Positions 27,960 through 53,320 of a stretch of 64,000 nucleotides of DNA are shown one piece after another. Source of the DNA: Octopus vulgaris (taxonomy: Eukaryota). Positions within the stretch are counted from its first letter, which is position 1. Each line of letters opens with the position of its first letter. A program made the position numbers and the translations under genes. The stretch is from the NCBI GenBank assembly GCA_951406725.2, contig OX597835.1, positions 30,504,001-30,568,000 on the forward strand. Direction: 5' to 3'. The notes under the pieces were generated by a model that worked only from the letters and a program-made list of their open reading frames with translations, was not told where the DNA came from and did no database searches.

Positions 27960-28435
27960 CATTTACAACGGGTTTATATTTTGCAAAAAATTATGACTGT
28001 TTGCTAACACGCTGATTACAGGTTGCATCGTACCTGAATTTAATGAGAGGAATAATTCTGAGTTGGGTTGTTCAGTAGTGGCGCAAATGTCGACGTGTCT
28101 GATTGCTATTTTTCTGGATTCCCCAGTTTTTATCTGGGCTCTATATAGTGTCATCCTTTGGCGAAGTTTGTTATTGGTTTGGCCTATATATTGCGCTCGA
28201 CGCCCTGAGAAAGTTAATATATACATTAGATTTTCCGAGACACATGTGAAGTTGTTTTTCACTGTAAAACAATGACCCTGTTTGGAAAAGAACGGCGATC
28301 CCTCAATTAGGTTGACGCAAACACCACAGTTACGTTTTCCGCATACATTTTACTGGCGGCTTCAGTGCTGTTGCTGAATGTATTGCTCTTGTGTTAGGAA
28401 ACTTTTAATAGATTTCGGTTGTCTTTTATATACTT
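27960..28435 (-). mobile_element. Penelope-like element remnant, GIY-YIG endonuclease
   Basis: NCGVCVNL...CFTVKNNFTCVSENLMYILTFSGRRAQYIGQTNNKLRQRMTLYRAQIK (ORF 27963-28262 plus upstream sequence). Confidence 0.8.
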
Positions 28436-49468: not shown

Positions 49469-49513
<45 letters not shown>

Positions 49514-49761
49514 GGAGAGAAAGAAAAAGAGAGAGAGAGAGAGTGGAAACAGAATAGAAAAAACATTGCTAAAGTAATGACCCAGATGCAATTTTTATTC
49601 TCTCCCCTTCTAATTCTCCAGCTTCTTACCAACCCATCCTTGTCAGCCACAAACCCACGATCTTTCCCCTCCTCTCTTTTTACCTCCTTATCTCTGCCAC
49701 CCCCTACTCTTCACATACATACATACATACATATATATATATATATACATACATGCATATA

Positions 49762-49801
<40 letters not shown>

Positions 49802-50049
49802 TATATACACGTATACACACATACACATCACATTGTATAGCTATTCTATTGTAAATGATATCCTTAACATACGGTTTTAATTGTAAATTCATGAGGCGAA
49901 CCCATGATACAAACACTTATTTCTTTTTTGTGTTTTTCTTGATAGATATATCAACACATTTAGTGCGATCACGTGATTATGATTATATTATCTGTGACCA
50001 CTGCCATCAAAACACCCTGGGCATGTATGTATGTATGTATGTATGTATG

Positions 50050-50080
<31 letters not shown>

Positions 50081-50192
50081 GTATGTATGTAAGCATGCAT
50101 GTATGTATATATTTATGTATGTTTGTATGTATGTATGTCTGAACTACATATCTATCTATATACGTCCTCTGTCTCTCTATGTGTGTGTATGC

Positions 50193-50379
<187 letters not shown>

Positions 50380-50666
50380 AATCTTTCTCTCTCCGACAGC
50401 TAATTCCTGCTCTCCCTCCGTCTTTCCTCCACTTTCTTCCTTTTTTTTATCTTATTTCCTATTTCATTGAAATTTTTTCCCTCAATTTCTTTTAGAAACG
50501 GATTGGGATGAAATGGGGTATAATAACTACCCTCTTGTGACTTTTAAATGCGATAGCTGTACAACCACCCACACCCGGCATTAACATTTCAACCTATATG
50601 ATATATAAATGTATATATATCTATATATCATACATCATATATATGTAAACATACATATATATATAC

Positions 50667-50729
<63 letters not shown>

Positions 50730-50957
50730 CATAGAAATATTAAAATTACTAAGTCTCTCTAAAAGAGAACAGCGGCAGCGTTCCCGGAAAATAATAGTTA
50801 TCGCCATACTAATATGGCATTCTTATAAAAATAAGAATAAGCTGTCCGCTTATTAGCTCCATGAGGCCATCGCCTTAAGTTAGCTATTTGATACACAAAC
50901 TGTATCCATATAACCTTCGAACAAGGGAGTCAGTCGCTCCACACTACTTGACCGGCA

Positions 50958-50997
50958 GCTACAGACGCGTTTCGGGTATTGCCCCTTTCAATGCAGC
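50958..50997 (-). ncRNA. Second copy of the hammerhead ribozyme (opposite arm)
   Basis: Minus strand gctgcattgaaaggggcaatacccgaaacgcgtctgtagc; it differs from the other copy by one substitution and two homopolymer-length changes. Confidence 0.65.
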
Positions 50998-51627
50998 GTA
51001 GCCAGCCAGTAGGTGTCGCTTCCGACAATCTCTGTTCGATGGTTTTATTTACCTAGTTTCGGTGGAATACATCCACTTGTTTTCAGTAATAGAAATATTA
51101 AAATTACTAAGTCTCTCTAAAAGAGAACAGCGGCAGCGTTCCCGGAAAATAATAGTTATCGCCATACTAATATGGCATTCTTATAAAAATAAGAATAAAG
51201 CTGTCCGCTTATTAGCTCCATGAGGCCATCGCCTTAAGTTAGCTATTTGATACACAAACTGTATCCATATAACCTTCGAACAAGGGAGGTCAGTCGCTCC
51301 ACACTACTTGACCGGCAGTAGTGTGGAGCGACTGACCTCCCTTGTTCGAAGGTTATATGGATACAGTTTGTGTATCAAATAGCTAACTTAAGGCGATGGC
51401 CTCATGGAGCTAATAAGCGGACAGCTTTATTCTTATTTTTATAAGAATGCCATATTAGTATGGCGATAACTATTATTTTCCGGGAACGCTGCCGCTGTTC
51501 TCTTTTAGAGAGACTTAGTAATTTTAATATTTCTATTACTGAAAACAAGTGGATGTATTCCACCGAAACTAGGTAAATAAAACCATCGAACAGAGATTGT
51601 CGGAAGCGACACCTACTGGCTGGCTAC

Positions 51628-51669
51628 GCTACATTGAAAAGGGGCAATACCCCGAAACGCGTCTGTAGC
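51628..51669 (+). ncRNA. Minimal type I hammerhead ribozyme, U3-A8 variant
   Basis: gctaca [ttgaaaa] gggg-caata-cccc [gaaa] cgcg [tc] tgtagc: 6-bp helix I, core UUGAnAA, helix II, GAAA, palindromic helix III (ACGCGU), predicted GUC cleavage after 51663. Confidence 0.75.
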
Positions 51670-51828
51670 TGCCGGTCAAGTAGTGTGGAGCGACTGACCT
51701 CCCTTGTTCGAAGGTTATATGGATACAGTTTGTGTATCAAATAGCTAACTTAAGGCGATGGCCTCATGGAGCTAATAAGCGGACAGCTTTATTCTTATTT
51801 TTATAAGAATGCCATATTAGTATGGCGA

Positions 51829-51901
<73 letters not shown>

Positions 51902-52234
51902 AGATATATATATATACATGCATACATACACAACATATGCATAAACACACACACATATATGTATGTATGTAAGTATGCATGTATGTACGTATAGACGTCT
52001 TAACTTTCAATTGTTCTTTCATATAGTTAGTCTCCATATCATATCTCCATATCGTTGTAAGCCTAGATTATAGCGCACCCTCGTGTATACTCTACTTTAA
52101 AATGCAATTCTGTTGTACTTTCAAAAATATGTAGGCAAATATGCCGCTTACTCTCCTTCTCTCTCTCCCTCTCTCTGTCTATCTGCACACTCATATAAAT
52201 GTACATATTTTTACATACACACATACACACAAGC

Positions 52235-53320
52235 TTGTTTATTACTTGTATGTGTTGGCTACGTTGAGGCCCAAATATTTGCACGACACACTAGTCCCAC
52301 TCCCGAACTATACGGTCGTTATATTGATGAGTGTTTCGGTGTGACCTCACTCTCCCGCGAATAACTAGACTCTTTCCCCTCTATTGTCCAATCCTTCCAT
52401 CCTTTCCTTGAATTCTTCTCCACTATTTCCAGCACTTCCTCGTCTTTCTCCACATTTCTCAACATACACAATCCTGCGCTCACTACCTCCATCCACTACA
52501 AAACACCGACTCATACTCATATCTCAACTTCTCCTCCTTACACTTGACTCACACCAAGCTCCCCATCGCCTACTCCCAATTCCTCCTTCTGCGCAGGCTC
52601 TGCAGTGGAAACCATGACTTAGTCTCAACTAATCGCTCACCACTTCATCTTTCGTGGATATCCCTTCACCGCTATCCACACAGCCGTTGCCAGAGTACGT
52701 TCCGTGGACGGTACCTCTGCACTTTCTCCCTGCACCCGCACCGCTGTTGCCCGTCTCCGGGTTCCCCTCACCTACCAACCTTCCAAACTGGCTCTCCAGC
52801 GCACAATTCTCCGAGCCTTCCGGTGACTCCAGTCCGACCTCTCCATTTCGGATATATTCCTCAACCTACACCTTCCCTCTTTTAAACGAGCCCACAACCT
52901 AAGTGACCTCCTGATCCACAGTCTTCCCTAACCCCACCTCCCAACCTGGTTCATTCGCGCGGTGCCGCACTTTCCCCTGCACGACCATCATCGCAGGCAC
53001 CCATCATCGTCCCCATGCACGTCTAGGAACGTCATTTACTGCATCACCCGCTCTTCCTTCCCTTCTCTGTACATCTGTCAAACAGGACGCCGCTTGGTTG
53101 ACCGGTTCGTGGGGCACCTCCAAGACATTAGACTCGGTAATAAAACCCCAGTCTCGCGCCATTTCCGCTCCACTGGTCATTCATCACAACACCTGTCTGT
53201 GTTCGGATTGTTAGCATAGGGACCATCCGGACTCCCGCCTTCGCCGCGAACGACAATTAATCTTCTTCCTTCGCTCCTTTGCTTCATATGGGCTCAACTC
53301 CCCTCCTCTCTTCATCTGAC
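52235..53320 (+). mobile_element. Penelope-like element, 5'-truncated and frameshifted (RT + GIY-YIG)
   Basis: VGYVEAQIF...LYGRYIDECFG (RT), IHYKxTDSYSYL, KLPIAYSQFLLLRRLCS, then CTSRNVIYCITRSSFPSLYICQTGRRLVDRFVGHLQDIR...VSRHF (GIY-YIG). Confidence 0.88.

Follow-up and report, generated by a model that had tools for sequence, protein, structure and literature searches.

A young 362-bp hammerhead repeat of Octopus vulgaris with paired insertion ends, and a LINE that inserts into it

The window copy and its repeat family

The window analyzed here, a 64,000-nucleotide stretch of Octopus vulgaris DNA (contig OX597835.1, positions 30,504,001 to 30,568,000), contains a near-perfect hairpin of about 1 kb embedded in (TA)n. 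What kind of element is it, and how did its two arms come to point away from each other? An initial annotation described a 358-bp monomer that is repeated in tandem and then mirrored. A recheck of the sequence reproduced the tandem unit starts (50731 and 51089) and the arms (50794-51308 and 51317-51835, with an 8-nt loop), but the period of the repeat family is 362 bp. With unit positions 1-362 numbered from window position 51317, the layout is as follows.

50595..50733, no strand: (TA)n target, left flank
50731..50760, minus strand: conserved block, followed by site B
50731..51318, minus strand: left arm, consisting of unit 353-362, one full unit (four homopolymer losses) and then unit 1-220, stopping at site B against (TA)n
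51309..51318, no strand: head-to-head junction, an 8-nt loop plus a 2-nt overlap of the arms
51317..51835, plus strand: right arm, consisting of one full 362-bp unit (51317-51678) and then unit 1-157, stopping at site A against (TA)n
51811..51835, plus strand: hairpin kept across six repeat families, followed by site A
51833..51916, no strand: (TA)n target, right flank

As the initial annotation held, the copies differ almost solely in homopolymers: the arms are separated by one substitution and four single-base indels, all four of which are losses in the left arm. The 362-bp unit is non-coding (GC 41.7%), and its longest stop-to-stop frame, 73 aa, fits the annotated absence of a meaningful ORF.

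The repeat is dispersed genome-wide, and not the single-copy monomer that would have spoken against a retrozyme. A 28-nt hammerhead motif has 1,158 exact matches in the genome (reversed control, 0), and a DNA search with the repeat returned 1,096 candidates in 2.8 Gb, with a top identity of 99% among the best 40 scored. Extrapolation from about 67 loci per 100 listed motif matches gives an estimate of 750-800 loci. Our sample is 104 insertions, drawn from the 40 loci of the best BLAST matches and from 60 regions of consecutive motif matches on two contigs. Substitutions amount to 0.39% within an arm, 0.52% from arm to arm and 1.58% from locus to locus, and there is a second subfamily about 86% alike to the first. 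The number of motif matches and the fixed insertion ends described below bear out the view of a recently mobile, non-coding hammerhead retro-repeat of the Penelope-like/non-LTR retrozyme kind. At least 71% of sampled repeat words are present in each of 20 public runs (13 studies, 9 coded organism labels); the near-identity of the repeat under nine labels may reflect close relatives or horizontal spread.

Scanning the entire window with a hammerhead descriptor gave two matches, one per arm (51634, plus; 50991, minus), in keeping with the annotated type I hammerhead in each full monomer.

51610..51677, plus strand: type I hammerhead with a U3-A8 core (51634-51640), a palindromic minimal helix III, an extended helix I and a predicted cut after 51663
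50949..51015, minus strand: second hammerhead copy, core from 50991, with one A and one C lost in homopolymers

The U3-A8 core identified by the scan is a variant reported for the hammerheads of Penelope-like elements (PLEs) (PMC4209133). The predicted fold of the region is a hammerhead on a long helix I (z = −3.29, with 1 of 200 shuffles folding equally well). Both subfamilies keep core positions 318-324 and 338-347 almost unchanged, and in 11 of 170 units, spread over 6 loci, both bases of the stem pair 307-356 have changed from G-C to A-U; 3 units show a one-sided change. Rfam returned no hammerhead model on 49500-53200 at an E value of 5, just microsatellite-driven miRNA matches. The palindromic minimal helix III points to a predicted ribozyme whose cleavage is probably dimeric. 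A second hammerhead-like motif at unit 223-262 failed the hammerhead descriptor. This degenerate motif (window 51539-51578) lies directly after site B and overlaps the PSE-like motif treated below, and in some copies of the second subfamily it has an 8-bp helix I.

Because each window arm carries only one hammerhead, the window copy would not release a monomer by double cleavage. The 515-bp double-stranded RNA initially attributed to it would require read-through from outside, since the arms point away from the centre; from its own promoters the copy would therefore not give a hairpin RNA either. Elsewhere in the family, runs of at least two consecutive hammerhead units are present (L049, L052 and L122), and the longer tandem arrays that the initial annotation had envisaged reach nine full units in one arm of L049. 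Contigs from four runs guessed to be RNA (two organism labels) cover parts of the repeat, and one 392-nt contig (362 + 30) wraps round the unit, as either a circle or a tandem array would make it do.

Insertion ends and the origin of the inverted arm

Across the 104 insertions, 156 of 173 outer ends fall at site A (unit 150-166, mode 160) or site B (unit 212-226, mode 222), mostly against (TA)n. Sixty-nine insertions are head-to-head and 35 are one-armed (16 end at B, 14 at A and 5 elsewhere), so that the hairpin, presented at first as a distinctive feature, belongs to the ordinary two-armed type. Wherever both ends of a two-armed insertion could be classed, one is A and the other B (57/57). 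One end lies outside the A and B windows in 12 of the 69, and L134 (ends 211 and 222) may be B+B. The A-B distance is about 62 nt, compared with 30-40 bp for published PLE tails.

Inner ends are variable. In the young subfamily, 44 of 58 junctions show an overlap of 1-9 nt, and the two inner ends lie within 10 nt of each other at 7 junctions, about twice the uniform expectation. The window copy, whose inner ends are 10 nt apart, is one of these seven and is a hairpin for that reason. Inner ends cluster at unit 23-33, 245-250 and 305-316, with no cluster at 287, and 14 of 144 (4 expected) lie at 348-357, immediately beyond the predicted cut. Given this excess, the predicted ribozyme likely opened some of the templates into linear RNAs. 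Arms extending past one or several cut sites are compatible with multimers left uncut or with circles, and do not favour the circle.

Opposite arms of the same insertion disagree at only 9 of 435 marker cells (2%) in 48 loci, compared with 22% on average and a minimum of 13% in 5,000 shuffles. The single haplotype of both arms suggests that one RNA primes both target strands, although one source locus active at a time could also produce it. Two other ideas were discarded: the apparently divergent arms of L018, L127 and L171 are indel-damaged and not of mixed subfamily, and classic L1 twin priming does not apply, as the inverted arm has a fixed outer end, independent of where the other arm stops.

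We are fairly confident that the window holds one insertion of a young, dispersed 362-bp hammerhead repeat, likely a non-autonomous PLE (non-LTR retrozyme), and that its head-to-head shape likely arose when both strands of a cut (TA)n target primed on a single RNA, at A for one strand and at B for the other. Under the model we propose, the unit would be transcribed from a snRNA-type promoter about 58 bp upstream of unit 287, through tandem units, and the resulting multimers would be trimmed by the hammerhead. An RT/GIY-YIG protein borrowed from a PLE, probably acting as a dimer, would then bind the repeat RNA and cut both (TA)n strands. One cDNA would begin at A and the other at B on the same RNA, and the two 5′-truncated cDNAs would be joined by microhomology annealing.

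Two RT start sites, a one-sided tail and inverted pLTRs are hallmarks of PLEs (PMC11167929, PMC3846280, PMC8557442), and head-to-head junctions have been described together with the latter two (PMC3846280, PMC8557442). The PLE tail has been explained by two adjacent internal RT start sites, and the protein is predicted to be a dimer (PMC11167929). The repeat is like endonuclease-positive PLEs in its two fixed internal 3′ ends, head-to-head arms, one-sided tail and AT-rich or (TA)n targets. It differs in having no ORF, in its longer tail and in the strict pairing of one A with one B, whereas the in vitro study (PMC11167929) reports no strand difference in start site.

The inverted arm could instead come from fold-back self-priming of one cDNA or antisense template, as proposed for palindromic PLE junctions (PMC3846280). 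Such an origin would suit the near-perfect hairpin of the window locus and the excess of inner ends within 10 nt, and it would account for the shared haplotype too. Yet 51 of the 58 junctions join unrelated unit positions, and the inverted arm is often the longer of the two. Moreover, a copy of an A-started cDNA would reach B only via a further unit, yet short arms stop exactly at B. We regard fold-back as unlikely and retain the priming of both strands on one RNA.

Relation to Penelope-like elements

The best candidate helper is a young Hydra-like PLE whose RT-endonuclease frames are 778 aa long, with a period of 2,863 bp and motifs of the Hydra clade. It too inserts in (TA)n, with ends at 363-382 and 516-526; all 12 two-ended loci combine one end of each kind. 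It resembles the published Hydra-clade PLEs (PMC8557442) in its length (<3 kb), its RT followed by a C-terminal endonuclease, its DKT, CxxC and CxH motifs and its (TA)n target. The 362-bp unit has no similarity to this PLE past 12-nt AT-rich words; with no sequence in common, the PLE is a candidate helper only. A PSE scan of its non-coding region gave no good match.

The repeat is joined to PLEs of this type at two loci. At L050, the 5′ end of the repeat is joined, on the same strand, to 475 bp of RT and 145 bp of non-coding sequence of the Hydra-like PLE; at L093, a related PLE is joined head-to-head with a repeat arm that stops at B. Both chimeras could alternatively result from insertion combined with deletion. 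Hydra-like subfamilies at L089-L093, L101 and L102 have long asparagine-rich linkers between RT and endonuclease, a feature described for rotifer PLEs (PMC3846280).

The window itself also holds PLE remnants. A decayed Neptune-like fragment lies at 52254-53210 (plus strand) and about 54100, 57% identical to an intact frame in L064; its sequence is unrelated to the 362-bp repeat, and a minimal hammerhead-like motif is found downstream of it. Another decayed fragment, at 28050-28427 (minus strand), is 43% identical to a frame in L058.

Repeats of the retrozyme/PLE kind are already known. Animal retrozymes are tandem type I hammerhead repeats that yield RNA in linear and circular form, and PLEs are suspected of being their helpers (PMC7229834; bioRxiv 10.64898/2026.07.22.740005). 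The octopus repeat matches the non-LTR retrozymes of Cervera and de la Pena 2020 (PMC7229834) and Li et al. (bioRxiv 10.64898/2026.07.22.740005) in its non-coding tandem unit within 150-450 bp, a GC content of 42%, one type I hammerhead per unit, dispersal and a link to PLEs. It differs from them in its U3-A8 core, in the resolved RT start sites and insertion anatomy, in being a dedicated LINE target, and in being known from DNA alone.

The copies might instead be solo or truncated pseudo-LTRs of an ordinary autonomous PLE outside our sample. Retrozymes match PLE pLTRs in Xenopus (bioRxiv 10.64898/2026.07.22.740005), the octopus genome has many PLE families (10,853 candidates, the best 150 scored), and our sample covers about 100 of the estimated loci. 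Comparison of the unit with the Hydra-like, Neptune-like and other PLE loci and with the sampled loci found no autonomous parent sharing the repeat sequence. None of the 104 insertions runs in register into a PLE frame; unit follows unit, head to tail. The annotated "octopus retrozyme / PLE pLTR array" stands as a retrozyme-type repeat with tandem arrays, while its pLTR half lacks an RT/GIY-YIG ORF in register at every insertion read. We consider a pseudo-LTR origin quite improbable.

Nor is the repeat easily seen as a SINE-like partner moved by the LINE described in the next section, a reading to which we give very little weight. That LINE is young, often intact (1,140-aa frames) and nearly always inside the repeat, but its insertion events leave a 17-bp duplication at unit 286-302 whereas repeat insertions end at A and B in (TA)n. 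The repeat and the LINE have no common 3′ tail, and the repeat obeys the rule of the Hydra-like PLE. Finally, a fold-back artefact of long-read assembly, prompted by a near-perfect palindrome with homopolymer differences known from one assembly, is barely credible, because the mirror ends at the element-specific sites A and B, the two flanks are unlike each other, and the layout recurs at 68 other loci, where the junctions are different.

A LINE lineage at hammerhead repeats and U2 genes

One repeat copy (L031) contains a 5.37-kb LINE with Pfam domains zf-CCHC, Exo_endo_phos (APE), RVT_1 and zf-RVT, whose nearest solved structure is human LINE-1 ORF2 (E = 7e−67). A CCHC ORF1 followed by an ORF2 with APE, RT and zinc-binding domains is the layout typical of L1/Tx1. 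By this layout we assign the element to the L1/Tx1 type; its 44 homologues include a named one from Argonauta hians and no named Tx1 reference. Two features of the window copy are relevant here.

51602..51618, plus strand: LINE target site (unit 286-302), unoccupied here and duplicated in other copies where a LINE is present
51539..51560, plus strand: weak PSE-like motif, core at 51545 (unit 229), 58 bp upstream of unit 287, overlapping the degenerate hammerhead-like motif

The LINE 3′-end pattern has 19 matches at 14 loci, and unit position 287 follows in all 19; 14 of the 19 copies are full-length. Base 286 is identical on both sides in 8 of 8 copies checked, on at least five repeat haplotypes, which argues for a 17-bp duplication and separate insertion events. 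Of five further copies from a protein search, four were read, one in the repeat and three elsewhere, so that 20 of 23 LINE copies end at one repeat position. One of the three off-target copies (L196/L261) has a U2 gene on either side, about 650 bp and about 575 bp away, and is not at +1. At L163-L165 (G000 C2, 73.04-73.07 Mb), five LINEs form an array whose spacers are the target duplication or one repeat unit; the array reflects repeated re-insertion at the regenerated site. LINE 3′ parts are also found within A+B insertions at L174 and L237 (both arms of the latter), an arrangement consistent with the PLE route having moved LINE-repeat read-through RNA.

Among related LINEs, we examined 40 of the 150 listed, chosen by protein score. 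A sister group joins this LINE family with 100/100 support in a rough bootstrap. Sister-group ends (n = 21) lie at hammerhead repeats in 16 cases, at U2 starts in 2 and elsewhere in 3, compared with 2 hammerhead repeats in the outer group (n = 20), where 2 loci have no readable end. A tally of 25 (18 hammerhead, 5 U2, 2 other) was excluded as an estimate of specificity, because its query contained repeat sequence. The U2 insertions of sister-group LINEs are at model position 1, and C-terminal LINE protein sequence is identical at U2 and at a hammerhead repeat. Rfam gave nothing over threshold in 30 LINE-relative loci. Outer-group LINEs (L220-L224, L227, L228, L230, L239, L240 and L243) have other recurring fixed targets of at least three sequence types, with no Rfam match among those scanned.

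Tx1-clade LINEs are known to target transposons, satellites or U2, as do Tx1L in Tx1D, Keno in U2 and Tx1-Mar (PMC4494074; PMC8869645). The octopus LINEs share with this clade (PMC4494074; Utopia, PMC4640811) an APE-type endonuclease, a fixed target in a multicopy repeat or transposon and tandem re-insertion. While Keno and Utopia insert before U2 nucleotide 39 (PMC4640811), the targets here are hammerhead repeats and U2 nucleotide +1.

The five other LINE-target repeats are 45-55% alike to the 362-bp repeat and share its layout: the LINE site precedes the hammerhead by about 60 nt, and the hairpins and the two ends recur. Their six clean two-armed loci comprise five A+B and one B+B (L233), two nested loci being excluded. 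The sister targets have a common TTYATCG start, and no LINE is present at any of 20 U1 loci; we conclude that sequence contributes to LINE targeting. This 7-nt word alone cannot account for 18 of 21 sister-group targets.

An ATCAGT-type core lies at −57 to −61 in all 38 U1/U2 promoters read (of 40 fetched, 2 had an upstream LINE). With a matrix derived from these, positions −57 to −60 relative to the LINE site give 10-18.5 in three sister families and 5.4 in a fourth; in the 362-bp family the match at −58 is weak, at 3.8 for the window allele and 6.9 for the majority allele. For comparison, left-out true U1/U2 promoters score 7.9-20.6, and random windows reach 3.8 in 0.8%, 6.9 in 0.2% and 10 in 0.03% of cases. 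In the 362-bp family these bases may also represent the relic of a hammerhead. No PSE-like motif is present in outer-group targets for which a duplication was found. Dispersed U2 genes on different contigs (L247-L266) keep the same upstream promoter sequence, of which there are three types. An internal snRNA-type promoter in a hammerhead repeat has a precedent in newt satellite 2 (Coats et al. 1994, as cited in PMC2220036), where it is experimental; in octopus it is suggested by motif and spacing.

Under this reading, the LINE target region (51602..51618) is likely the transcription start region of the repeat, and the LINE would gain the repeat's promoter and ribozyme-cut ends. We tentatively suggest, as a possibility that we hold at less than even chances, a three-tier system. 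Hammerhead repeats with snRNA-type promoters would be carried by a PLE RT, which would use two sites on a single RNA to prime both strands of the target. A LINE lineage would have specialized on the transcription start of PSE promoters, in the repeats and at U2 +1. This lineage may be guided by promoter-bound SNAPc rather than by target sequence alone, taking the promoter and ribozyme-processed ends and at times travelling inside repeat insertions.

The literature searched yielded no account of strictly paired A+B ends, no LINE aimed at hammerhead repeats or U2 +1, and no retrozyme from octopus; the Octopus PLE lists (PMC8557442 supplements) and Repbase lie outside that search and could already include these families. 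How PLE tandem and inverted insertions with a one-sided tail form is named as an open question in PMC8557442, as is the enzyme that moves animal retrozymes in PMC7229834. A young, high-copy 362-nt template, with its A+B rule and same-haplotype arms, provides a minimal substrate and a sharp prediction for an in vitro PLE assay. If true, a LINE that finds the +1 of snRNA-type promoters over dissimilar targets would represent promoter-guided LINE targeting and would offer a handle for site-specific insertion.
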